Assembly (NCBI GenBank): GCA_027053075.1
Contig: JALUEE010000098.1
Span: forward strand, 1 to 27,012
Source: a candidate division WOR-3 bacterium
GTDB taxonomy: Bacteria; Hydrothermota; Hydrothermia; B15-G9; WFZT01
Direction: 5' to 3'
Length of the DNA: 27,012 nucleotides
Made by a program: the position numbers and the translations under genes. Below the pieces are notes generated by a model. That model searched no databases. It worked only from the letters and a program-made list of their open reading frames with translations, and was not told where the DNA came from. How positions within the stretch are numbered: the first letter of the stretch is position 1; each line of letters begins with the position of its first letter. Below, in pieces: positions 1,227-25,673 of the stretch.

Positions 1227-2363
1227 ATGATAGTTCAAAGCTTTATCTTTCTGCTGCTGGTTTCTTTTAAACCAGCACCTGCAACCCACGTAAGAGCGTA
1301 TGATACCCCCAACGATGCCGGTGGGAGTGTTACGGTAAAATGGGACCTCTCAAAAGATGATTCTATTGTCACAAAGTATGAAATTATCAGGATAATTGGG
1401 AGTCCCAATGGCAAAAGGGTATCTGCCGGATTTGTTCTTCGAGGCACTAACTCTTACAGGGATGTGGACCTCAAAAATGGCCAGAAGTACTACTATATGA
1501 TCAGAACCTGGGCCGATGGCGAATACAGTGATTCTGAAATTACCCCCACACCTGCCATTCCAAAACCACAGTGGTTCCATACCAAGCGTGTAGTCGCTCT
1601 TGTTATCCTCGTGATATTTACACTGCTTCTGTGGTATTACCTTCAACTTGCGAAGAAGGGTGCCCCTCTCTGGATTCGTAAGATCGCGGGACTGGAGGCA
1701 ATTGACGAAGCGGTAGGACGTTCTGTAGAGATGGGAAGACCCATTCTTTACATTCTGGGTCTTGGTGCTATTTCCGATATTCCTACCATTGCCGGACTTG
1801 CAATTCTTAAAAGGGTGGCTAAAAAAGCTGCTGAATACGAGGCTGAGATCATTGTCCCGAACTACGATCCCATCGTTATGGTCGCAGCACAGGAGACAGT
1901 GAAGGAAGGCTTTATGGAAGCCGGGCGTCCTGATCTTTATCGTGAAAACAACATTATGTTTCTCACGCAGGACCAGTTTGGATACGCAGCAGGTGTAGAT
2001 GGAATAATGGTCAGGGAAAAGCCGGGTGCCATTTTCCTTCAGGGACTTTTCTTCGCGGAGTCACTGATCCTTGCAGAGACAGGTCACTCAATTGGAGCAA
2101 TTCAGATTTCGGGAACAACTTCAGTAACGCAGCTACCGTTCTTTATTGCTGCCACAGATTACACGCTCATTGGAGAAGAGATGTATGCGGCAAGTGCCTA
2201 TCTGACTCGTGATCCACTCGCTCTTTCAACACTTAAGGCTGAAGATATCATGAAAGCTCTCTTTATCGCTCTTGTGGGACTTGGCACTATCTTTGAATCA
2301 ATTGCAATTTTGACAGGTGCTCAGGGTTTCCATTTTCTTAAAAACCTATTCAACATGTTTTAA
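1227..2363 (+). CDS. Membrane protein with an N-terminal fibronectin type III-like domain and a DUF6754-like C-terminal domain
   Basis: DTPNDAGGSVTVKW...YYY FN3-like segment, a TM helix, then IRKIAGLEAIDEAVGRSVEMGRP and LIGEEMYAASAYL motifs I recognise as DUF6754-like; SD GGAGG. Confidence 0.75.
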   Translation: MIVQSFIFLLLVSFKPAPATHVRAYDTPNDAGGSVTVKWDLSKDDSIVTKYEIIRIIGSPNGKRVSAGFVLRGTNSYRDVDLKNGQKYYYMIRTWADGEYSDSEITPTPAIPKPQWFHTKRVVALVILVIFTLLLWYYLQLAKKGAPLWIRKIAGLEAIDEAVGRSVEMGRPILYILGLGAISDIPTIAGLAILKRVAKKAAEYEAEIIVPNYDPIVMVAAQETVKEGFMEAGRPDLYRENNIMFLTQDQFGYAAGVDGIMVREKPGAIFLQGLFFAESLILAETGHSIGAIQISGTTSVTQLPFFIAATDYTLIGEEMYAASAYLTRDPLALSTLKAEDIMKALFIALVGLGTIFESIAILTGAQGFHFLKNLFNMF

Positions 2364-2375
2364 CGGAGGAGGAAA

Positions 2376-3161
2376 ATGAGACGGGAAGTTCCAATTGCAA
2401 TTACTTTTTTCACTGGAGTTTTACTTGTTGTCGCATTCTTTATTCCACATGAGCCTTTTGGAAGTCTCGAGCAGAGGTTCAACGACTGGTACATTATAGT
2501 TTCGGGATTTGCCATGATTCTGGGGCTGGACTCCCTGCTTCTTCACCACTGGAATAAAGTGTCAAGAAGGAGTCAGGACTGGTTCCACTCGCTGAGTTTG
2601 ATCCTGGCGTTTTTCATAACCCTGTTCTGGGGTTTCTACTCAGGGATTCACACGGGTAACTTTCTTTCAGCCCAATCGACATTTAGAAAGTACTTTTATC
2701 TTTATGTGTTTGTGCCGCTTCAGGCAACAATGTTTTCGCTTCTGGCGTTCTTTATCGCGTCGGCTGCTTACCGTGCATTCAGGGCTGATAGATTTGAAGC
2801 GACTCTCCTGCTATTCTCAGCAGGTATTGTGATGCTTGGGCGTGTACCTATGGGTAATCAGGTTGCTCCCTGGATCATCGGGTTTGTTCTCCTCCTCTTT
2901 GCGTTCCTTCTCTACAGTGATGGGAGGAAAGAGGTCGACTCTTTGAGGCGTGCATTGAAATTCGGTGGAGCTATTTTGAGTCTTCTCCTGATTTATCCAT
3001 TAGCGTGGTTTTTCCTGAAATACACAGCTGCCACTGCCGGATGGATTATGAATATTCCACAGCTTGCTGCTAAAAGAGGTATCTTCATTGGAATCGCTCT
3101 TGGTGGAATTGCCATGTCTTTGAGAATCATACTTGGCATTGAAAAAACTTATCTGAGGTGA
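2376..3161 (+). CDS. Conserved multi-pass membrane protein of unknown function
   Basis: About 7-8 hydrophobic segments, ATMFSLLAFFIASAAYRAFR motif, SD GGAGGAGG. Confidence 0.8.
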   Translation: MRREVPIAITFFTGVLLVVAFFIPHEPFGSLEQRFNDWYIIVSGFAMILGLDSLLLHHWNKVSRRSQDWFHSLSLILAFFITLFWGFYSGIHTGNFLSAQSTFRKYFYLYVFVPLQATMFSLLAFFIASAAYRAFRADRFEATLLLFSAGIVMLGRVPMGNQVAPWIIGFVLLLFAFLLYSDGRKEVDSLRRALKFGGAILSLLLIYPLAWFFLKYTAATAGWIMNIPQLAAKRGIFIGIALGGIAMSLRIILGIEKTYLR

Positions 3162-3164
3162 GAA

Positions 3165-3986
3165 ATGAGAAAATACTTTGAAAAACTGGCACAGATTGAT
3201 AGAAGGATAATTTATCTCATCCTTTTCCTGACGGTGCTCCTTCCATATCTATTTAAAATCAGTCTCCCCATGAAACCGCTCCCAGAAGTTGTTCAGGCTT
3301 ACAAAGAAATTGACCAGCTTCCACCCGGCTCAGTCGTGATGATCTCCATTGACTACGATGCCGCGTCAATGCCAGAGGTGCAGCCCATGCTGTATGCAAT
3401 TTTGAGGCATTGTTTTAGTAAGAATTTGAAGGTCGTGATGCTTGGTCACTGGCCTCTTGGAATTCCTCTCGGTGTCACAGCTCTTAATGAGGTCGCGAAG
3501 GAATATCACAAAAAGTACGGTGTGGACTATGTGTTTCTTGGATTCAGGCCGGGTCTTGCAGCTGTGATAATTAACATGGGAAAAGAAATTCGCTCGGTTT
3601 TTGCAGAAGATTACTGGGGCACCCCTCTGGATTCGCTACCAATGATGAGGAACATTCATACGTATGATGATATTGCTGTTATTGTAGGACTTGAGGCAGG
3701 GTCTGTCGGTGATGCGTGGGTACAGTACGCGCAGGCAAGGTACAATGCGAAAATAATTCTTGGGGGAACAGCAGTTGTGGCACCTGACTGGTATCCCTAT
3801 CTTCAGTCACATCAGATTGTTGGACTAATTGGTGGATTGAGGGGAGCGGCTGACTATGAGAATCTTGTACACCACAAAGCGCTTGCCTACTACGGAATGA
3901 CTCCACAGGCGGCTGTCCACATATTGATTGTAATATTCATCATTCTCGGTAATCTTGGGTACATTGCCCTTAGGAGGAGGAAGTAA
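3165..3986 (+). CDS. Membrane-anchored protein of unknown function (N- and C-terminal TM helices around a soluble alpha/beta domain)
   Basis: TM at both ends, GLIGGLRGAADYE motif, 3-nt gap from the upstream gene. Confidence 0.8.
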   Translation: MRKYFEKLAQIDRRIIYLILFLTVLLPYLFKISLPMKPLPEVVQAYKEIDQLPPGSVVMISIDYDAASMPEVQPMLYAILRHCFSKNLKVVMLGHWPLGIPLGVTALNEVAKEYHKKYGVDYVFLGFRPGLAAVIINMGKEIRSVFAEDYWGTPLDSLPMMRNIHTYDDIAVIVGLEAGSVGDAWVQYAQARYNAKIILGGTAVVAPDWYPYLQSHQIVGLIGGLRGAADYENLVHHKALAYYGMTPQAAVHILIVIFIILGNLGYIALRRRK

Positions 3987-3987
3987 C

Positions 3988-4632
3988 ATGGCACAGGTAT
4001 TCTGGACATGGGTTGCAGCGTTTTTAACTCTGGCGATATTTAGCTTTCTTTACAAGGACAATCCTTTTTACAAATTTGCTGAGCATATTTATGTGGGAAG
4101 CTCAGCGGCATTCTGGCTGGTCTATCTCTGGTACTTTGACATCAAGCCCAAGCTCATTGACGGGTGGAGAATGAATACGGGTCTTGAAAAGTACATTCTT
4201 ATAATTCCGGCAATCCTCTCTGTATTTATCCTCCTGAGATTTATCAGGCCAATAGCCTGGATTTCGAGATGGGCAATTGCATTTACAGTTGGAATGGCGG
4301 CAGGACTTGGAATAACGGCAAATCTTCAGGGCTTTCTGGTCCCTCAGATTCAGGCCACGTTTCTCCCTGTCTGGGTGCCTTCCCATAATTTCTGGCACTC
4401 GCTCGGACTCTCGGTAAACAACTGGATACTTGTGATAGGGACTGTTGTGACCATCTTCTATTTTTACTTCTCCAAGGAGCACAAAGGTACTTTAGGGGCA
4501 CTCTCACGAGCGGGCATAGTCTTTATCATGATCGCGTTTGGAGCTTCCTTCGGTTATACGGTGATGGCACGTATTTCGCTTCTCATCGGGCGTGTTTATT
4601 TCTTAATCCACAACTGGCTGCACATTGTCTAA
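3988..4632 (+). CDS. Conserved multi-pass membrane protein of unknown function
   Basis: Start moved from the track's 3955 to ATG 3988, which follows SD AGGAGG; FSFLYKDNPFYKFAEH motif; about 6 TM segments. Confidence 0.8.
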   Translation: MAQVFWTWVAAFLTLAIFSFLYKDNPFYKFAEHIYVGSSAAFWLVYLWYFDIKPKLIDGWRMNTGLEKYILIIPAILSVFILLRFIRPIAWISRWAIAFTVGMAAGLGITANLQGFLVPQIQATFLPVWVPSHNFWHSLGLSVNNWILVIGTVVTIFYFYFSKEHKGTLGALSRAGIVFIMIAFGASFGYTVMARISLLIGRVYFLIHNWLHIV

Positions 4633-9498: not shown

Positions 9499-11106
9499 AT
9501 GAAACTTGTCCATAAACTGTTTTCTGACTGGATAACCTGGGGACTTTTAGGTGCTATAGCACTTTCTATAGTTCTGGCCAGGTTTGTTCCTGACCTCAGG
9601 TGCCTCGTGTTCCCTTTTGTAGGGGCCCTAATCGGGTACATTACCAATGTTCTTGCAGTATGGATGATTTTTAACCCCAAGAAGCCAAAGAATTTCAAGC
9701 TCTTTAAATGGCAGGGATTGGTTCCAAAATCCAAACCCCGGATTTCAGAGAATTTATCAACCACAGTCGAAAAAGAACTCGTAAACCCGATGCTGATCAA
9801 GGACCATCTTATGAAAAATGACAAGAAAATTGTGGAGGGCCTGAAAGATTTCATAATAAATGAGCTAAATAAAGAGTTGCCTTCCTTACAGGAGCTCGCG
9901 GGGGATCGATATTACAGAATAAAAGCAACAATCTTGGACTTTTACGAAAGCAACGTCTCAAGACTGGTAACCCTCGTTGATGCCATGCTCAAGGAGATTC
10001 TCAAAAGACCGCTAAGGGAGTTTGTGGGAGAAGGTCAATATGCCGAGATAAGAAACCATCTCTCGGCATTTATTAAAGAAAGGATAGAGGAAGTATCCAA
10101 TCGTTCTATAGGGGATTTAGTAGGTTCACGAGACTTAAAGGCACTTGCCGAAAATTTAGTTGATAAAATAGACGAGGATGCAATTTCATCACTATACAGA
10201 ATGATTTCCTCGAAGAGCATTCACGACATTTATCCTGATTCCGAAGAGATTTCAAGAAAGGTGATCGAGTTTATTGCTCTAAAACTTCGAGAGCCCGAGT
10301 TCAGAGAAAATTTAGCAAGAATGATTATAAATGCTGTGAGAGAGCGGGAAACCTTGATAGGAAGAGCACTTGTGAACGGCATTGATTTTATTATCGACCT
10401 TGAAGCGCGTATTTCAGATTATCTCGAAAACCTTGCAGACAGGATTGAGAATGATCCGGAATTTATCGAGGATATAGAAACCAGTGTCATATCTTTTTTG
10501 AGACAGCCAATCTCGAGTTATATTGAAGAAGATAAATTTACACGATATCTTTACAGGACTTTGACGCTCATAAAGCCTATTATGATTGAAAATGTTGCCC
10601 GGATTTCCAATCGCCCCTTGAAAGATATAGTACCCATCACCACGCTGCAATCCCTTAGAGAAAAATTTATAAAATGGCTTGACTCAAAATACAGGGAAAA
10701 TCTAAACGAGCCTGTGATGCTGGACTTTTATGAAAAATATCGTGAGTCCATTGTCAAAGTAATGGAAAGTGCACTCTATTCTGCCAAAGGATTTATTGAA
10801 TCTTCTCTTGATAAGTTAAGTAACAAGCCCATAGGGGAACCATCCCGCTTCTTCAATTTAGAAGACGTAATTGATGACTTTCTTAATCTTATGTTTCCTA
10901 AAATATTGATACTTATCGAGGAGCTCATAGAAAGAATCAACATAAAAACGATAGTGCGTGAGAGAGTGGATTCATTTAGCGTTGAGGAAATGGAAGAGGT
11001 AGTTTTTGGTATGATGAACAGGGAATTCAGGACCATAGAGTTACTGGGAATCCCCATTGGATTTCTTGTAGGATTTATTCAGGGGGCATTATGCCTGATG
11101 GGGTGA
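9499..11106 (+). CDS. DUF445 family membrane-anchored helical protein
   Basis: GALIGYITNVLAVWMIF and QGLVP near the N-terminus, IELLGIPIGFLVG at the C-terminus, long helical middle. Confidence 0.8.
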   Translation: MKLVHKLFSDWITWGLLGAIALSIVLARFVPDLRCLVFPFVGALIGYITNVLAVWMIFNPKKPKNFKLFKWQGLVPKSKPRISENLSTTVEKELVNPMLIKDHLMKNDKKIVEGLKDFIINELNKELPSLQELAGDRYYRIKATILDFYESNVSRLVTLVDAMLKEILKRPLREFVGEGQYAEIRNHLSAFIKERIEEVSNRSIGDLVGSRDLKALAENLVDKIDEDAISSLYRMISSKSIHDIYPDSEEISRKVIEFIALKLREPEFRENLARMIINAVRERETLIGRALVNGIDFIIDLEARISDYLENLADRIENDPEFIEDIETSVISFLRQPISSYIEEDKFTRYLYRTLTLIKPIMIENVARISNRPLKDIVPITTLQSLREKFIKWLDSKYRENLNEPVMLDFYEKYRESIVKVMESALYSAKGFIESSLDKLSNKPIGEPSRFFNLEDVIDDFLNLMFPKILILIEELIERINIKTIVRERVDSFSVEEMEEVVFGMMNREFRTIELLGIPIGFLVGFIQGALCLMG

Positions 11107-11175
11107 TTTTATGATGGTAATAGAAATTGGTGCACCCTGTTACCTTACACATACTGCAGAAGATTTTTAAGGTTA

Positions 11176-11222
11176 CCCCTCACCTCTATCCTCTCCCCGC
11201 GAGTATTTATGCGGGGAGAGGA
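11176..11222 (+). repeat. REP-like copy R2
   Basis: CCCCTCACCTCTA tail plus a perfect 12-bp stem TCCTCTCCCCGC/GCGGGGAGAGGA. Confidence 0.85.
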
Positions 11223-11314
11223 AGTTTTGGGTTTGGAAGCAAATTTTTGCCGGAGAGAAAAATCCTTTTTGAAAGACATTCCATAGTGACCTCACACACT
11301 AAGAAGCAAAATCT

Positions 11315-11353
11315 CCCTCCTTCCTCGAGGAAGGAGGGTTTAGGTGAGAATGG
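11315..11353 (-). repeat. REP-like copy R3 (inverted partner of R2)
   Basis: 24-bp perfect palindrome CCCTCCTTCCTCGAGGAAGGAGGG plus tail TTTAGGTGAGAATGG. Confidence 0.8.
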
Positions 11354-11472
11354 TGAAAAATGGATTCTGGAAAGTTCAGAAATCCTCAAAATCATTTCGT
11401 TGTAGGAAAAGGGTAGAACCAAGAGTCCCCCTACAGGCCCTGCCTGTGTAATCGAAAGGCCAAAAATTATAA

Positions 11473-11499
11473 CCCTCCCCCGCACTTCGCGCGGGGGAG
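11473..11499 (-). repeat. REP-like copy R4, left part (interrupted by the IS110 element)
   Basis: CCCTCCCCCGC-ACTTCGC-GCGGGGGAG; the stem's last two bases and the tail lie at 13240-13256. Confidence 0.85.
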
Positions 11500-11513
11500 A
11501 TAACAATAATGTT

Positions 11514-11519
11514 TGTCAA
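11514..11519 (-). promoter_or_regulatory. Outward-facing -35 box at the IS right end (half of a circle-junction promoter)
   Basis: TTGACA on the - strand, 14 nt inside the CT core. Confidence 0.65.
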
Positions 11520-11677
11520 GATTGACAACAACAGTATCATAAAATTTGATATCGTTATTATTGTAAAACTTTGATGCCACTGCCTTCTATGGTCTTTGTG
11601 ATTTTTGACAATATTATGCCCCTCTCTAACCTGCTATCAAGCTGGACAAAATCTGAATTTTTTTCTTTCCTTCCCGC

Positions 11678-12973
11678 CTAAAATATGTTTATATCTATCT
11701 CATCACTTTCCGTTGGACGTTGTGCCCTTGTCTCCACCCCCGCCATCTCCATCCTTCTCATCGCCATCTCTTCTCCCCTCCTTATACCTTCCATCGCCTT
11801 CTCCAAACTCCACTCCTCTCCGCTAACCGCTATCGCATACACTATCTCCGCTAATTTCCTCGCTACCGCCCCTCCCGCTGCCCTCTTGCTCTTACCACGC
11901 CTCAATAACCTCTCATAATACGCCCTTATCTGCGGATTCGTCCTCCTCGCACTCACACCCGCAAGTAAAAATGCCATCTTCAACATCCTGTTCCCCTTGT
12001 TCGTCATCTTCCCCCTCCTTCGCATATCACCACTCTCCCATACCGTCGGATACAACCCACAATAACCCACAAATTTCTTCTTGCTCCTAAACCTACGCTT
12101 TATGTCCCCTGCCTCCGCTATTATCACACCCGCTGTCACCCAGCCTATCCCCGGTATGCTCGTTATCTTGCACTCCGAATAGTATTCCTCAACTATCTCC
12201 TTTACTTCCCTGTCTATCTCCTTTATCACCCCATCGATCTCCAATATCTGCCTCACTATCGTCCTTATTATCAGCATCTCCGCCTCTGTTAATTCCTGTA
12301 TCGGTGCACTCCTCGCTACATCTATTACCTTCCTGACTATGCTCCTCCTTATTTTCTGCCTACCAACCCTTATCTTCATTAATTCCTCTTCCCCAGCTCC
12401 CAGTATTAAATGGGGTGATGGAAATCTCTGGAGTATGTAAAGAAAACCAAGAGGCAACCCACTCTTCACCAGAATCCTGTATCCAGGGAAATAAATTCTC
12501 AGTATGTGGTACAATTGATTCTTTAAAGAGGCCTTGTTCTCTATGAAGGTACGTCTTGTGCGAACAAGATGACGCAGGCGTTGGAGGAAGAGGGGAACGT
12601 GATAGTCTCCCTGAGGTTTGATAGTGGCCAGGTAGCGGGCTATAATTTGAGCATCGATACGGTCGGTTTTGGCACTGACGTTGAGTGCTTTAGCGAAGTA
12701 ACGGACGGATGCGGGATTGAGTTGATGTACTTCAATGTTATCCATGGCTTCGAGGGTGTGTAGGATACCGATATGGAAGTCACCGGTAGATTCGAGGCCG
12801 CAGACGATTTTATAGTTTTTGGAGAGTGAGGAGATGAGTTGGGAGAACTCATGCCAGCCATCAGGGGTATTAGGGTATTTAGCGGAGGATATGACGGGGT
12901 GTAAATTATCATCGAAGAAGGAGGCGAATAGTTCTTTTGAGCTTACGTCTATACCAACGTATAAAGTATCCAT
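11678..12973 (-). CDS. IS110-family DEDD recombinase/transposase
   Basis: GIDVS, GLESTG and KTDRIDA (DEDD tetrad), SIPGIG, catalytic-serine loop WESG, KGNRMLK, AVARKL; SD AGGAGGTG at 12985-12978; intact 431 aa. Confidence 0.97.
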   Translation of the reverse strand: MDTLYVGIDVSSKELFASFFDDNLHPVISSAKYPNTPDGWHEFSQLISSLSKNYKIVCGLESTGDFHIGILHTLEAMDNIEVHQLNPASVRYFAKALNVSAKTDRIDAQIIARYLATIKPQGDYHVPLFLQRLRHLVRTRRTFIENKASLKNQLYHILRIYFPGYRILVKSGLPLGFLYILQRFPSPHLILGAGEEELMKIRVGRQKIRRSIVRKVIDVARSAPIQELTEAEMLIIRTIVRQILEIDGVIKEIDREVKEIVEEYYSECKITSIPGIGWVTAGVIIAEAGDIKRRFRSKKKFVGYCGLYPTVWESGDMRRRGKMTNKGNRMLKMAFLLAGVSARRTNPQIRAYYERLLRRGKSKRAAGGAVARKLAEIVYAIAVSGEEWSLEKAMEGIRRGEEMAMRRMEMAGVETRAQRPTESDEIDINIF

Positions 12974-12997
12974 AATGCACCTCCTGTTTTTTTTATT

Positions 12998-13177
12998 GGG
13001 AGGAGATGGAGAGTGGGAGCCTCCACCGAATGGGGTATAGCCTAACCTTCTGAATGGAGTGATTTTTTACACGAATAACAATCCAGGCTTATACCCCAGG
13101 TGGAGGGACCAATCTCCCCCTCGGGGTCATGCCCCAGGACCAAGGCCGGTCTCCACCCACTCATACCATCTCCTCCC
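12998..13177 (-). ncRNA. Putative bridge RNA (target-binding and donor-binding loops)
   Basis: Closing stem 12998-13009/13166-13177; two stem-internal loop-stem domains whose loop strands match the target and donor sequences. Confidence 0.85.
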
Positions 13178-13228
13178 GAAGTGTTTTCCCTATATTTTTA
13201 GTGATAACCATCATAAATAACAACAAAC

Positions 13229-13234
13229 ATTATA
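13229..13234 (-). promoter_or_regulatory. -10 box at the IS left end
   Basis: TATAAT on the - strand, 3 nt inside the CT core and upstream of the bridge RNA. Confidence 0.7.
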
Positions 13235-13239
13235 GAAAG

Positions 13240-13256
13240 GGATCAAAGGGAGGGGG
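13240..13256 (-). repeat. REP-like copy R4, right part
   Basis: GGATCAAAGGGAGGGGG completes the stem and tail of R4. Confidence 0.8.
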
Positions 13257-13292
13257 CTTTCCGCTTGGAATCTTAGAAAATTTAGATGTAAA

Positions 13293-13330
13293 CCCTCACC
13301 CCATCCCTCTCCCACGTAGTGGGAGAGGGA
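13293..13330 (+). repeat. REP-like copy R5
   Basis: CCCTCACCCCA tail plus a 12-bp stem TCCCTCTCCCAC-GTA-GTGGGAGAGGGA. Confidence 0.85.
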
Positions 13331-13367
13331 GACTCACAGATTTTTACTGAAATTTTGTCAGTTGTTG

Positions 13368-13415
13368 CCCCTCACCTCAATCCTCTCCCCGCAAGTATTT
13401 ATGCGGGTGAGAGGA
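13368..13415 (+). repeat. REP-like copy R6 (near-identical to R2)
   Basis: CCCCTCACCTCAATCCTCTCCCCGCAAGTATTTATGCGGGTGAGAGGA. Confidence 0.85.
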
Positions 13416-13477
13416 AGAATTTTGTGGCAAACAAATAATTCTCAGAAGTGCCGCCTGTGAGATAAAAAGTAAAATTT

Positions 13478-13522
13478 CCCCTTCTTCACAAGCGAAGCTT
13501 GTGAGGGATTTAGAGAAGGGGC
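13478..13522 (-). repeat. Degenerate REP-like copy R7
   Basis: TCACAAGC-GAA-GCTTGTGA hairpin with a G-rich tail. Confidence 0.55.
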
Positions 13523-20357: not shown

Positions 20358-22124
20358 ATGAACTGGCTACTATTGCTTGTCACTCTAATAAGACCTGTTC
20401 CGAGGGTTTTGTTTCTTACCTCAACTATAGACGGTAAAGGGATGCTCCCCCCGGGTGCACACCTTGCCCTGGAAGAATTCAGCAGACACGGAGCTTTTGT
20501 GACCTTTCATGATAAATCCATCCTCTACAGTCCGGATTCTCTTAAATACTTTGATATAATCATCGCTCCAACTTCCTACGGATACCACGACATAGACCGA
20601 CCACTATCCCTCACCTATCTTGATACAATTTCCATGAACAACATACTCAATTGGATAAAAAACGGTGGTTTCTTTATTGCAGGTGGCAATATTGGCAGGA
20701 ATACTCTGAAAGGAAAAGACCGTGTGGTTTCGGGTAATAAATTAACCCAGGACGAATGGCCCTTAGGACGAGCTTTCGGCTTCGATATGGTTGAAATAAA
20801 TATCAAAGGCTATGCACTCCTCAATAAAGATACAGTTTTCTTCGACTGGTACAACAATCCTGTGAGGAATAAACTTGACATGGATGACTGGGTGCTCGTT
20901 CCCGTAAATGAAAAGTCCGATGTTCACAATCTCCTCGTCTGGTCTAACGGTAAAAAATCCTTCGCGGGTGCGACGATCAGGAAATATGGGAAAGGCTATG
21001 CCATGCTGCTTTCCTCGTTTCTTTTATTGCATCCTTCGTTCGATGGGGGTTGGGCAGATGTTCCAGAGATAACAAGATTTTATCATAGAGTGACCACGTT
21101 TTTTATGGGTCTAAAAGGCCATTCCACTGGAGTTGACCCATGGCCTTTTGGCAAAAAAGCTGTTCTTGCAGTTACACTCGACGACGGCGGAAAATTCTCA
21201 GAATACCAGCTTACATTAAAATCGCTTCTTGATAGGGTGCCTGGCCTCACGTTCTTTGTTACTGGAAGGCTTGAGCCAGATATACTTTCATACATCAAAA
21301 AGTTCAAACAGATCGAGATTGGTAACCACAGCTTCAACCATCCGTTCTTCAGAGACCTTAATCTCACACAGTCTATTGCAGAAATTGAGATGACTGAAAA
21401 AGTCATCGGAAAGACCAGGGTCTTTAGATTCCCCTATGTAAATTATACTTCCGAGGGGATTTACGCTCTCTGGACACATGGATTTAAATACGAATCCTCC
21501 ATCAGGGTTGACCATTTAAATGAATTTAAAGGGGCCATTTTCCCCTACAACCTTGTGATTTCCTTTGGCAGAAACCTTATAACAACCGGACTTTACGAAT
21601 TTTCGCCTGTGAAGTCGGACTGGTTCTTTTACCAGAAAATATATGCCGACAATTATCCGGAAAAGGAGCAGATCGCCAGCCAAAAAGCCTTCAAATCATA
21701 CCTCGAAACCATGTGGGAAATTATCAAAGAGGCACGAGGTGTGATGGTTCAAATGGGACATCCCATGTACGAAGGCCACACAATGGCATTCCTCAAGCCT
21801 GTGCTGGAATTTATTGACGAGGTTGAGCAGGACAAAAATGTATGGGTTGCCTCTCTCGGTCAGGTTTACGACTGGTGGAGTACTGTACGAAACGTGAGGG
21901 TTATGGTTGAAGATAAAGGTAAAAAGATTACTTACAGGATCAGCAATCCATACCATGAAAGAATAGAGGGTTTCAGCCTCTGGATTGACTCTGGCCCTCC
22001 GAAGGTTAAGTTTAAGAAATGCAGTGGCTATTACTTCCAGGAAAAAATGGGTGAGAACACAAGATACCATATTGTTCTTACGATCCCACCTGGTACCTCA
22101 TCTGTCGAAGTCAAGCTTCCATGA
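20358..22124 (+). CDS. Exported polysaccharide deacetylase (CE4/NodB domain) with an additional N-terminal domain
   Basis: TLDDG, GNHSFNHP and FRFPY NodB motifs; hydrophobic N-terminus. Confidence 0.85.
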   Translation: MNWLLLLVTLIRPVPRVLFLTSTIDGKGMLPPGAHLALEEFSRHGAFVTFHDKSILYSPDSLKYFDIIIAPTSYGYHDIDRPLSLTYLDTISMNNILNWIKNGGFFIAGGNIGRNTLKGKDRVVSGNKLTQDEWPLGRAFGFDMVEINIKGYALLNKDTVFFDWYNNPVRNKLDMDDWVLVPVNEKSDVHNLLVWSNGKKSFAGATIRKYGKGYAMLLSSFLLLHPSFDGGWADVPEITRFYHRVTTFFMGLKGHSTGVDPWPFGKKAVLAVTLDDGGKFSEYQLTLKSLLDRVPGLTFFVTGRLEPDILSYIKKFKQIEIGNHSFNHPFFRDLNLTQSIAEIEMTEKVIGKTRVFRFPYVNYTSEGIYALWTHGFKYESSIRVDHLNEFKGAIFPYNLVISFGRNLITTGLYEFSPVKSDWFFYQKIYADNYPEKEQIASQKAFKSYLETMWEIIKEARGVMVQMGHPMYEGHTMAFLKPVLEFIDEVEQDKNVWVASLGQVYDWWSTVRNVRVMVEDKGKKITYRISNPYHERIEGFSLWIDSGPPKVKFKKCSGYYFQEKMGENTRYHIVLTIPPGTSSVEVKLP

Positions 22125-22169
22125 GCATGTTCGAAAGATTTCAATTTATCTGTAATTTTAAGAGCAATT

Positions 22170-22222
22170 CCCCCACCTTTCCTCCCCCACGCAGGAAGTG
22201 CGTGGGGGAGGATGGGAGGGGG
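22170..22222 (-). repeat. REP-like copy R9
   Basis: 14-bp stem TCCTCCCCCACGCA/TGCGTGGGGGAGGA plus tail TGGGAGGGGG. Confidence 0.85.
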
Positions 22223-22267
22223 CAATATTCTCCACAGGTTCAACTACCATGAATTCAGGGAGTTTCT

Positions 22268-23716
22268 ATGGTCTTTGAGGTAAAAAGCACTCTTGATGCC
22301 CTAATCCTCATTGTCACCAACTTTTTCATCATCTATTTTGTTGTTTATGGCCTTATAAATATCTGGTTCTTCGCCGTTTTCCTCATTGATTTCATGGGAA
22401 TGAGGCCTCGTGATGAAGAGATCGTAAATCCACCTCGAGTTTCCATCCTCGTTCCATCTTACAATGAGGAGCGAGTGATAGTGAACACCGTTACCTCCCT
22501 CTTAAATCTCGACTATCCCAACTTTGACATCATTGTCATAGACGATGGGTCCCGTGATAATACAACACCAGAGCTCGTGAGACATTTCTCCATGGAGCCC
22601 GGAAATCTAACACCTATAGGAAAACTCAAAACAGCGAAAATCGAGCGGATTTATCAATCTAAAAAGTACCCCAATCTAATCCTGATTCGCAAAGAAAATG
22701 GGGGGAAAGCCGATGCCCTGAACGCGGGTTTAAATTTCTCAAAAAGTGAGATTGTGGTAACCATAGATGCTGACACCCTGCTTTCACCAAGGAGCTTGAT
22801 GAGAATGGTAAGACTCTTTAGAGAGAAAAACGCGGCCGCAGTGGGAGGCCTTCTGACAGTTTCAAACGATGCCATCATAAAAAATGGTAAACCCGTCAGC
22901 GCAAAATTTCCGTCAAACCTCTGGGTAGTTTTCCAGCTCATCGAATACCTCGTCTCCTACTCCATCGGCCGAGGAGCCTTATCGAGAATAGACTCACTGC
23001 TTGTGCTTTCAGGGGCATTTTCAGCCTTCGACAGGGAACTCCTTTTAAAAGTTGGTGGCTTCCTGTCAAAATTTGCCCACAGAAAAACAACTGTCTGCGA
23101 GGACATGGAGATCATCGTTAGACTCCATAAATTCCTGAAAGAGAAACGCATTCCCCGCCCCATCAAATTTCATTTCTTCCCCATTGCCTGGACTGAAGTT
23201 CCATCAAAGCTAAAAAACATTTTGAGACAGAGAAACAGATGGCACCGCGGACTCGGGGAGTCTCTCCTGATTCACTCAGATATGTTCCTGAACCCAAAAT
23301 TCAGGCACATAGGATTTTTTGCCGTTCCATACTACACTATTTTTGAATTTTTCTCACCCATTGCCAAGCTTCTATCAACCCTGCTCGTTCTTGTCCTTGT
23401 ATTCTTAAACCTTGTTCACTGGAAATTTGTAATAACCCTCTTCTTGCTCGTTGTTGTCCTGAATGGTCTCTACACTTCCCTTGTAACAACCCTGGTTGAA
23501 GTGAAATTCAAAAATATCTCAAGGGACAATATTGAAGCTATGAGGTTCAAAACCCTTGGAGATTGGCTTAAACTTATACTTCTTTCGTTCTTTCTTGAAC
23601 CAGCCTTTGGAGTTATAAGAACATTTGCCCAGCTCTGGGGTATTCTTGATCTTCTGAAAGGTAAATCAAGCTGGTATAAGTTCGAAAGAGAAGGAATTAA
23701 ATTAGAGGAGGAATGA
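22268..23716 (+). CDS. Processive GT2 glycosyltransferase (PgaC/IcaA-like synthase)
   Basis: DDGS, GKADALN, DAD, ED and QRNRW motifs with N- and C-terminal TM helices. Confidence 0.9.
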   Translation: MVFEVKSTLDALILIVTNFFIIYFVVYGLINIWFFAVFLIDFMGMRPRDEEIVNPPRVSILVPSYNEERVIVNTVTSLLNLDYPNFDIIVIDDGSRDNTTPELVRHFSMEPGNLTPIGKLKTAKIERIYQSKKYPNLILIRKENGGKADALNAGLNFSKSEIVVTIDADTLLSPRSLMRMVRLFREKNAAAVGGLLTVSNDAIIKNGKPVSAKFPSNLWVVFQLIEYLVSYSIGRGALSRIDSLLVLSGAFSAFDRELLLKVGGFLSKFAHRKTTVCEDMEIIVRLHKFLKEKRIPRPIKFHFFPIAWTEVPSKLKNILRQRNRWHRGLGESLLIHSDMFLNPKFRHIGFFAVPYYTIFEFFSPIAKLLSTLLVLVLVFLNLVHWKFVITLFLLVVVLNGLYTSLVTTLVEVKFKNISRDNIEAMRFKTLGDWLKLILLSFFLEPAFGVIRTFAQLWGILDLLKGKSSWYKFEREGIKLEEE

Positions 23717-25191
23717 GCATGCTGAATTTGATTTTAATATTGACCCTTATCGGAAGCAATGAGGGTGATCGACTCTGGAAACTTATCGACCAGGGGAAAT
23801 ACACCACTGTTATTGAAGAGGCAAATCAATATATCAAGAAAGGGAATGTCGAGAAGGATGTGCTTCTTGCCCTTGCATACTCGTACAGAGTCACAGACAG
23901 CACTGATAAGGCCATAAAAATTTATTACAAAATCCTCTCGGCCAATCCCTCAGACTATGATGCCCTCAGCGGGCTTGCGTTTACACTCTCATGGAAAGGA
24001 GACCTGGACAGCTCTATTAAAGTTTACAAAAAACTTCTAAAATCTTACAAAAATGACAGAGAGGCTCTCATGGGGATTGCCAGAGTCTATGGCTGGAAGG
24101 GTGACCTGAAGCAGGCAAAAAAATGGATAAAAAAGGCACTGTCTATCTATCCCGACTCTCCTGATGTTTTAAAGATCTGCGGAGATATCTATACGTGGGA
24201 TGACAGGCTCAAAGAAGCGGCCAGATGCTATGAAAAGGCCCATGAGAAATCCCCGAAGGATGTTGAAATCATCATAAAACTGGCAAGGACTTACGAATGG
24301 ATGGGAGATTACAAAAACTCCTTAAAATGGTATAGAATGGCCCTAAGCCTTGATCCTCAGAACAAGGATGCTGTGAGTGGTATCAAGCGAATTAAAAATG
24401 CCAGAAAACCCACACTGTCTTTAAAATACTCCAACGGTCTTGAGATTGACTCTACCACAAAGACAAGATGGAACTCCATGGTTCTGAATTTAAAAGGAAA
24501 ATTAAACCGCTATCTTGGATACTCTATACGCGCCTCGGGATACAACGCAAGAAAAATTGATACCTCACGGACAACATATTTCATGCAGCCGGGAATTATC
24601 TTCACTTACAATCCCTTCACCCTGACTCTCGCTCCCGGATTTGGAACCACAAACGTCATGTACAGTGAACTCTCGTTCAAAAAAGACCCCGTTACTCTCA
24701 GTGCAATCTACACTGATGAAATCCTTGAGGATGTGCATCTTATAAAAATCAAACATCTTGAGCTAAATGGTGAACTTGATATGTTTGGTTTTGAGCTCAA
24801 AACCGGATATGACAAAGGCCAGATTCCGTATGATAACAACTCACGAGTGATTTTTGATTTTACCCTTATCCGCAACCTGATCAGCAACCCTGTGAGCCTG
24901 AAAATACTTTACTCTTATGGATACAAGGATTACGCAAACTGGTCTCCTTACTACTACTCACCATCAAATTTCAGCCTTCACTCACTGGGAGCAATGATTT
25001 TTAAGAGTCTCGGTAAAGGTTACATTTATGCCGATTTCAGCCGGTCCTTTTACGGCCAGCCCCAGATGCTATCCGCATCGGCCGAGGCAGGTTTCAGGAA
25101 CTTTTACATTTCAATCTCGTACTTCGAGACATCTGAGAATTACAGCTACACCAACATTTCTGCGGGTTTGACCACAAGGTTGGGATTTTAA
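23713..25191 (+). CDS. TPR-repeat plus C-terminal beta-barrel outer-membrane protein (PgaA/YaiO-like export channel)
   Basis: Signal peptide, about 5 TPRs (LAFTLSWKG, IARVYGWKG, LARTYEWMG), YYSP motif, terminal Phe; ATGA overlap with the GT2 gene. Confidence 0.75.
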   Translation: MSMLNLILILTLIGSNEGDRLWKLIDQGKYTTVIEEANQYIKKGNVEKDVLLALAYSYRVTDSTDKAIKIYYKILSANPSDYDALSGLAFTLSWKGDLDSSIKVYKKLLKSYKNDREALMGIARVYGWKGDLKQAKKWIKKALSIYPDSPDVLKICGDIYTWDDRLKEAARCYEKAHEKSPKDVEIIIKLARTYEWMGDYKNSLKWYRMALSLDPQNKDAVSGIKRIKNARKPTLSLKYSNGLEIDSTTKTRWNSMVLNLKGKLNRYLGYSIRASGYNARKIDTSRTTYFMQPGIIFTYNPFTLTLAPGFGTTNVMYSELSFKKDPVTLSAIYTDEILEDVHLIKIKHLELNGELDMFGFELKTGYDKGQIPYDNNSRVIFDFTLIRNLISNPVSLKILYSYGYKDYANWSPYYYSPSNFSLHSLGAMIFKSLGKGYIYADFSRSFYGQPQMLSASAEAGFRNFYISISYFETSENYSYTNISAGLTTRLGF

Positions 25192-25244
25192 TGAGCTTTA
25201 TAAATGGTGAATATAAATACACCAGACAAAAAGGTGATGAAATG

Positions 25245-25673
25245 ATGTTGATTACCCATTCCACCCCAACCCTCCCTTGCCAGATGGAATGGAGGGAGTT
25301 TTATCATCTCTTAAACCAGAATAATCGAAACCTTTGTCGGAAAGCTAAGAAACTTCCCCTCCTTCCTTCGAGTAAGAAAGGGTTAGGGGAGGATGGTGAA
25401 TCAAATGGGGATTTTGAAGACTTGGAATCCATTATCTTTCACATACACCTTATGGGCATGTATGAAAATTTTGGATTTGATAAAAGACTGAACTGTGCGC
25501 TGGGTAAAGATTTGGATGAAGTAATGTTTACTATCCATTCCACCCCCTTTTCTCAAATGGAAAGTATGGAGTTTTATTCTCACACAAACCACCAGACTCG
25601 AAACCTTTCCCAGGAAGCTGAGAAACTTCCCCTCCTTCCCTCAGGGAAGGAGGGGTTAGGGGAGAATGGGAAA
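25245..25673. repeat. Two degenerate direct copies (about 25245-25400 and 25524-25673) of a REP-doublet unit
   Basis: Shared CCATTCCACCCC...GGAGTTTTAT...TCGAAACCTTT...AAGCTnAGAAACTTCCCCTCCTTCC...GGGTTAGGGGAGnATGG. Confidence 0.85.

Follow-up and report, generated by a model that had tools for sequence, protein, structure and literature searches.

Does the DNA upstream of the recombinase gene in this window (the whole 27,012-nucleotide stretch that was analyzed) encode a guide RNA, and if so, how would that RNA choose the DNA to be joined? A sequence-only reading had proposed a natural bridge-RNA recombinase with all four guides readable. Our results make it quite likely that the region encodes the predicted bridge RNA of an intact, multi-copy IS110 element that resides in C-rich palindromes and undergoes IS621-type recombination, the left target guide pairing at no constant spacing from the core. 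On the broader proposal, that the element represents a clade of long IS110 bridge recombinases whose elastic left arm lies 0 to 4 nt farther from the CT core than that of IS621, we place even weight for and against.

The element and its parts are as follows:

11500..13236, minus strand: IS110-family insertion sequence between its cores, with boundaries common to genome copies that have differing flanks
13236-12974, minus strand: left end (263 nt)
11678..12973, minus strand: bridge recombinase, 431 aa, with PF01548 and PF02371
11677-11500, minus strand: right end (178 nt)

This arrangement is consistent with the layout of the IS110 group, in which a long, RNA-bearing left end lies upstream of the gene and a short core is found at both ends. 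The core is CT at 28 of 29 left junctions and at all 12 right junctions from the element's own genome, and no end-to-end inverted repeat appears among the repeats listed for the element. The source genome assembly holds at least 14 left ends and 12 right ends, and an alignment-based scan of genome contigs recovered 19 loci (a scan with a single protein recovered none). These copies fall into two groups. In subfamily A, five left ends are identical to that of the window over the available length (100% identity, at least four different flanks); in subfamily B, nine left ends are 81 to 87% identical to it and the recombinase is ~90% identical. One of five same-genus genomes, G004, also carries the element. 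Five copies in the source genome (C22, C14, C30, C4, and C50) are mosaics of A and B sequence, and C50 has a non-A right end inside an A-type target; recombination between copies, trans mobilization, or assembly chimeras could account for both observations. In G004, copies L049 and L054 are cut by another insertion sequence, and L044, L046, and L049 add two more natural variants of the target loop, each in agreement with its own flank at 6 to 7 of 8 positions.

The encoded protein has the marks of an intact recombinase. It matches PF01548 and PF02371 at 82.9 and 82.7 bits (cut-offs 29 and 21.3), and its RuvC-like DEDD residues (D9, E61, D104, and D107) and the serine of its Tnp domain (S314) are invariant in all 17 proteins of an alignment composed of the window protein and 16 of 120 listed matches. 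The same five residues align with the motifs of IS621 and ISCro4, which also supply the best ten Foldseek matches (E 1e-16, ~20% identity) to the predicted structure (pLDDT 85.8). Pfam domains, modeled fold, and catalytic residues all place the protein in the IS110 recombinase family, and they bear out the proposal of an intact recombinase. Relative to IS621, the model contains an extra helical insert of ~70 aa (approximately residues 163 to 229) between the coiled-coil helices, which could accommodate looped-out DNA of an elastic left arm.

Upstream of this gene lies the predicted RNA:

12998..13177, minus strand: predicted bridge RNA body, with a basal helix and separate loops for binding target and donor, from fold and covariation

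The 180-nt region folds with a z score of -6.55, and none of 200 shuffles was equally stable. Among 13 homologous RNAs, whose recombinases are ~40 to 100% identical, 98.5% of 195 helix cells are paired, and 8 of the 15 pairs show two-sided change, a result met by 0 of 500 shuffles; the structure was drawn from the same sequences, which somewhat favors it. Controls with slid registers were only 26 to 50% paired. The fold and covariance check called for by the sequence-only reading thus came out in favor of two internal loops, each apparently closed by a stem and an inner hairpin, which together would make four IS621-like helices. The unconstrained minimum-energy fold pairs both target guides with each other, and the energy needed to keep the loops open is 13.3 kcal/mol at 37°C (6.4 kcal/mol at 65°C), which counts against the model. 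An Rfam scan of the window gave no match at the gathering score.

A related structure is found elsewhere without a transposase. This bridge-RNA-like remnant lies upstream of a PorP/TraF-like gene at G000:C33:137110-137300 (L020, about 4120-4310) and has target guides that differ from those of the window. It recurs at the same place in G004 (C180, L052; 95% identity over 659 bp) and did not appear at the corresponding site of G005. We considered the C33 locus as an intact trans-acting guide and rejected it as decayed: it scores 53.8 versus ~125 bits, an inverted duplication stands in place of two stem strands, and the genome contains no exact copy of its predicted target.

If the RNA guides recombination, its loops should be readable against the DNA at the two junctions:

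13237..13246, minus strand: left junction, with left target TTGATCC (13246-13240), core CT (13239-13238), and one extra T
11493..11507, minus strand: right junction, with left donor ATTGTTAT (11507-11500), core CT (11499-11498), and right target CCCCC (11497-11493)
11472..11497, minus strand: right part of the interrupted C-rich palindromic repeat (a REP-like hairpin), with empty copies genome-wide

The left part of the interrupted repeat lies at ~13300-13240. At 28 of the 29 left-end-anchored junctions, CT is followed directly by (T/C)CTATA; the window alone has TT, that is, an extra T, and an alternative reading of its left junction places a TT core at 13238-13237. The empty repeat GATCCCTCCCCC (GATCC-CT-CCCCC) occurs 10 times in the genome and GATCCCTTCCCCC (GATCC-CTT-CCCCC) not once, so TTGATCC-CT-CCCCC, the target originally proposed, is likely the pre-insertion site, and the window junction carries one added T. 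Other junctions have extras as well, TCT at C22 and L044 and CCT at C50 and C56, beside the T at window positions 13238-13237. The duplication of the left end's first three bases recurs in both subfamilies and could arise if an element re-inserts at the CT inside a copy already present, or by slippage. Few repeats carry such a +1 or +3 "footprint" (1 and 2 copies), and A-type +3 forms number 0. An empty allele of the window locus was not found in the five same-genus genomes, so the repeat could have caused a false join of the two flanks; in G004, a different gene lies beyond hflX.

The target-binding loop contains two guides that behave differently:

13112..13120, minus strand: right target guide GGGGG-AG (13120-13114) and handshake AU (13113-13112)
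13136..13147, minus strand: left target guide, 5' strand of the target loop, GGCCUUGGUCCU

The strings first quoted for these guides, GGGGGAG at 13120-13114 with CTCCCCC at 11499-11493 and TTGGTCC at 13143-13137 with TTGATCC at 13246-13240, are all present on the minus strand. In the 11 linked elements, which have both ends on one contig, the right target guide matches the right flank at 47 of 55 positions. By group, the mean match is 4.29 versus 3.04, and the cognate pairing is the best of 5,040 permutations of the seven guide groups. This comparison shows the putative right guides to lie in a fixed register and to covary with the core and right-arm DNA. Together with the covarying stems, it supports the suggestion that the system follows the bridge-RNA logic of IS621. 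The handshake AU can pair with donor positions 7 and 6.

The left target guide pairs less rigidly. At the window site, UUGGUCCU can pair with TTGATCCC (13246-13239). In copy C14, the best-matching site for this RNA, the subfamily A guide CCUUGGUC-CU faces CCTTGTTC-CT with a 9/10 match, and in C23 and C96, all 11 flank positions agree with the subfamily B guide UUUCCCCUC-CU. The window match is real as proposed, with a corrected register: it lies 1 nt farther from the core than in C14 and 2 nt farther than in IS621. We examined 25 sites and nine guide groups, four of them close kin, which is a small sample. L054 (truncated RNA), L033 (no flank), and C16 and C66 (contig end precedes the loop) were omitted, and L024 and L030 (flanks of 13 and 5 nt) fell outside the junction set. 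The cognate left guide is the best or joint best of the nine at 19 sites and is not the best at 6. With a 7-nt arm in IS621 numbering, 6 sites fit best with a gap of 0, 5 with 1, 5 with 2, 6 with 3, 2 with 4, and 1 with 5, so that the IS621 geometry fits 6 of 25; contiguous pairing holds in subfamily B, not clade-wide. The window site itself has a gap of 2 with the CT core at 13239-13238 and of 3 with the element-anchored core. Four identical RNAs in one complete genome match their sites at gaps of 2, 4, 3, and 2. When the gap was fixed at 0, 1, 2, 3, or 4 nt, the cognate score was equaled by 1923, 1276, 82, 356, and 1403 of 5,000 permutations, gap 2 being nominally significant. When it was free between 0 and 4 nt, only 1 of 5,000 permutations did as well, and 0 of 5,000 did so without the window and the four sites with +3 duplications. 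Thus, while the right guides of homologs covary with their DNA in register, the left target guide likely has no fixed register and sits 0 to 4 nt farther from the core than in IS621, which would imply a physical bulge or slide at the left arm.

A competing explanation, which we regard as possible and distinctly less probable, retains one fixed left register. Sites would then be chosen by the right guide and the core (a half-match), perhaps aided by the repeat hairpin, and the shifted left matches would stem from C/T-rich sequence, trans-acting RNAs, or junction-added bases. Several observations lend it substance. One-arm insertion has been published for IS621 (10.64898/2026.08.31.748434), and according to the available text on ISPpu10, a target stem-loop adds specificity (10.64898/2026.03.19.712850). 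A 6/7 left match arises in 40% of shuffles, junction-added bases exist (+1 in the window; +3 in C22, L044, C50, and C56), and the non-A right end in the A-type target at C50 hints at trans mobilization. Some subfamily A sites are poorly matched at any gap (C22, 4.0; L048, 4.5; C47, 5.0; L021, 5.0 of 8). Yet permuted guides that are given equal gap freedom score lower (5.17 for cognate versus 4.22 for permuted guides), also when the duplication sites are left out. Furthermore, in most relatives that do not inhabit repeats, the guide starts with CAU, and the matched CAT is a start codon followed by 130 to 141 open codons at 6 of 7 linked sites. A variable-distance left guide therefore remains the reading that we prefer.

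Those relatives (~33 to 49% identity) have a target type of their own. All seven linked sites read G-AG-N4-10-ATG on the other strand, with the ATG open to the end of the flank in six and only 14 codons of flank in the seventh. At three further distant loci, the ATG lies 5 to 6 nt from the core. In most of these relatives, the guide opens with CAU and AGGAG is rebuilt by the left end. The loci that target ribosome sites are L025, L028, L029, L031, L034, L036, L037, L038, L040, and L041. A natural spacer of 4 to 10 nt would favor a flexible left arm and so may supply a selective reason for it. Translation-start targeting by IS900 is the subject of a title by Doran et al. 1997, as it appears in the reference list of PMC8141618. 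Such targeting was not seen in the window lineage, where none of 20 close-family left flanks has an ATG 3 to 12 nt from the core. In a tree read without row L025, whose frame was mis-extracted, the window family groups with L023 with good support (98/97); the backbone of the tree lacks resolution, and an order with ribosome sites first and repeats later would be conjecture.

Within the source genome, the element appears to have changed its target instead. Subfamily A inserts into CCCCC-type repeats and subfamily B into TCC-type repeats, with recombinases ~90% identical in one genome, and all eight TCC-type right ends begin CT-TCC, fitting the right guide of subfamily B. As judged from these sequences, guide mutation is shown to have re-aimed the element among palindromic repeats. 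Dense clusters comprising several C-rich palindromic repeat families occupy 11170-11500, 13240-13500, and 25236-25669 of the window, and two core repeat motifs each exceed 100 copies genome-wide.

The thermophile origin that had been suspected is well supported for the host, which encodes a full-length reverse gyrase (1323.7 bits, cut-off 471.7) and for which 10 of 14 listed sequencing runs are labeled hydrothermal-vent metagenomes; none of the 14 listed is an RNA run. A temperature of ~64°C estimated from amino acid composition is only a hint, as it comes from crude open reading frames. The recombinase, from a host with reverse gyrase, may be heat stable. On the plus strand of the window, a gene for a 535-aa DUF445 protein (9499-11106) sits beside the insertion and had no DNA match at E 1e-10 in the five same-genus genomes (82 to 96% complete). 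A four-gene membrane-protein cluster (1227-4632, plus strand) encodes a DUF6754 protein followed by three proteins without a Pfam match. Farther along (20358-25191, plus strand), genes for a polysaccharide deacetylase, a GT2 glycosyltransferase, and a TPR-repeat protein (by Pfam) lie in a row and resemble an exopolysaccharide synthesis and export locus.

The donor-binding loop would read the element's own ends:

13073..13082, minus strand: left donor guide AUUGUUAU (8 nt) and core-facing UC, with 8/8 identity to 11507-11500
13045..13055, minus strand: right donor guide AU-(UC bulge)-AGA-AG (13055-13047) and handshake GU (13046-13045)

Here, too, the quoted strings stood on the minus strand: ATTGTTAT at 13082-13075 and again at 11507-11500, AGAAGG at 13051-13046, and CTTTCT at 13239-13234. 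In distant homologs, the left donor guide changes to AUUGCA or AUUACA together with the donor. Position 13074 is U or C in relatives, either of which pairs with the core G. The left donor arm is 8 nt long in the window and 7 nt, in the IS621 register, in distant relatives. On the right, subfamily A sets AGA opposite TCT and the other elements AGG opposite CCT, at 3 of 3 positions in all 11 linked elements, and an invariant AUU upstream of AGA or AGG yields the form AU-(2-nt bulge)-AGAAG. Of 11 elements, 8 can pair the first handshake base of the donor loop with target position 7 (four G-C, four U-A), one has a wobble there, and two have no pair; in all 11, the handshake A of the target loop faces its complement, donor T7, both bases being invariant. 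The sequences are thus consistent with handshake guides that each pair with positions 6 and 7 of the other substrate.

These patterns bear on what the donor is. The sequence-only reading had taken it to be TTGTTAT-CT-TTCTA, and it is doubtful, at rather long odds, that the window carries this as a separate variant read by AGAAGG with one wobble. Such pairing can be drawn, and the repeat consensus (10 versus 0) favors a CT core at 13239-13238 with the extra T on the element side. The extra T is, however, absent from 28 of 29 junctions, including four copies with an identical left end, while the register is set by the covariation of AGA/TCT against AGG/CCT, and the G at 13046 varies with target position 7. 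Because the extra T is peculiar to the window copy, the right donor guide is best read as AU..AGAAG with a GU handshake, as in IS621, and the last G of AGAAGG as a handshake base and not a core pair. By sequence, then, the family donor is ATTGTTAT-CT-TCTAT. AGAAGG, whose register had been flagged as ambiguous, keeps its AGAAG; its last G is reassigned, and an AU extension had been missed, as had both handshake dinucleotides.

Single matches between loop and DNA should be read with care. In 20,000 dinucleotide shuffles of the 180-nt region, matches as good arose at rates of 39.6% for the left target, 17.4% for the right target, 0.135% for the left donor, and 47.6% for the right donor as first drawn; two matches alone are at chance level, and all four in order appeared in 1 of 20,000 shuffles. 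The claim that four guides are readable accordingly holds for the matches, with the registers of the right donor and left target corrected. That the structure is a mere 5'-UTR or regulatory hairpin of the transposase mRNA, with targeting directed by the protein, is very improbable: the basal helix does end just upstream of the ribosome-binding site, and structured 5'-UTR control is described for ISPpu9 in the available part of PMC12288879, but loop letters that covary with distant DNA ends and insertion flanks are unexplained by a UTR role.

How might such an RNA be made? Two half-promoters lie at opposite ends of the element:

11514..11519, minus strand: -35 box TTGACA, the right-end half of the predicted circle-junction promoter
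13229..13234, minus strand: -10 box TATAAT in the left end

TTGACA stands 13 to 14 nt before the core in the listed relatives, both the close ones and those at 40 to 53%. The predicted -35/-10 spacer is 18 bp in the family circle, 19 bp with the window's extra T, and 17 bp in distant relatives. By analogy with IS621, where a circle-junction promoter drives the RNA (PMC11208158, in its available text), the joined promoter would drive both RNA and recombinase, with a transcript start predicted near 13222 from the position of the -10 box. Tandem or circle junction motifs numbered 0 in the genome and retrieved loci, as did the circle-junction pattern in viral contigs, and there was no circle joint among those listed for contigs of six DNA runs; joints that skip the element in those contigs have only 20 letters on the short side and may stem from other repeat copies. 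Taken together, the element would circularize at CT, bringing TTGACA and TATAAT 18 bp apart so that RNA and recombinase could be transcribed. The donor loop would pair with ATTGTTAT-CT-TCTAT and the target loop with the repeat, the left target guide probably doing so 0 to 4 nt farther from the core than that of IS621, as the statistics on natural sites suggest. A composite DEDD/Ser site would then exchange strands at the core, aided by the handshake pairs AU and GU, and mutation of the guides would redirect subfamilies A and B to separate repeat types.

Bridge recombinases serve as genome-editing tools on the assumption that a fixed 14-bp register provides their specificity. A sliding left arm, if true, would explain variable-spacer target sites among IS110 elements and would expose a source of off-target insertion. 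It would allow one RNA to read the variable-spacer combination of ribosome site and ATG that distant relatives occupy and, once its guides were naturally reprogrammed, several families of palindromic repeats in the thermophilic host. The source genome offers a natural test set, as it combines recombinases that are ~90% identical and nearly shared donor loops with different target loops.

Both the basic mechanism and a thermophilic representative have been published before. Guide predictions exist for 32,190 bridge RNAs (10.64898/2026.10.21.760802) and a screen has covered 72 orthologs (10.1101/2025.05.14.653916), so readable guides are ordinary. With IS621 and ISCro4/IS622, as far as the accessible portions of the sources go (PMC11208158; 10.1101/2024.01.24.577089; 10.1101/2025.05.14.653916; PDB 8wt6 and 9t56), the window element shares the DEDD and Ser residues, a left-end RNA with the target loop before the donor loop, the CT core, a split -35/-10 promoter (predicted in the window element), and REP-like targets. 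With wild-type IS621 it further shares the handshake letters AU and GU and a right donor guide with a 2-nt bulge (topology in PMC11208158), and IS621-like A-N4-G motifs precede three of the four guides in the window RNA. The differences are also considerable. The recombinase has 431 aa versus ~326 in IS621/ISCro4, with ~20% structural identity and the ~70-aa helical insert; the left donor arm has 8 nt versus 7; unlike in IS621, a long basal helix closes the RNA; the natural right target guide pairs fully (7/7), whereas that of wild-type IS621 pairs at 4; and the left target arm matches at a variable gap of 0 to 4 nt, unlike that of IS621. Durrant et al. observed off-targets that tolerate insertions (10.1101/2024.01.24.577089). 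A variable left-arm gap at natural bridge-RNA sites was not found in a literature search for which most subscription papers and bioRxiv supplements were out of reach.

Other systems touch on single aspects of this one. The distant relatives of the window element, like IS900, insert between a ribosome-binding site and an ATG with a variable spacer; the window lineage differs in occupying intergenic palindromes, and the likeness of those relatives to IS900 is one of target site. The target consensus of IS900 reportedly includes a variable spacer. CazIS110-1 of Caloranaerobacter azorensis, likened here by description only and from the available part of its report (10.1101/2025.10.25.684509), is also an IS110 present in multiple copies, has a bridge RNA with two loops, and comes from a thermophile of deep-sea vents; it is experimentally active, whereas activity of the window element is a prediction. 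ISPpu9 and ISPpu10 of Pseudomonas putida, in the accessible descriptions, are likewise REP-targeting IS110s for which transposase-less RNA modules exist and a target hairpin can add specificity, but they differ in element organization, and in the window the hairpin lies on the right-target side. Measured against these systems, what goes beyond the routine is natural reprogramming among co-resident copies together with evidence for a sliding left arm.
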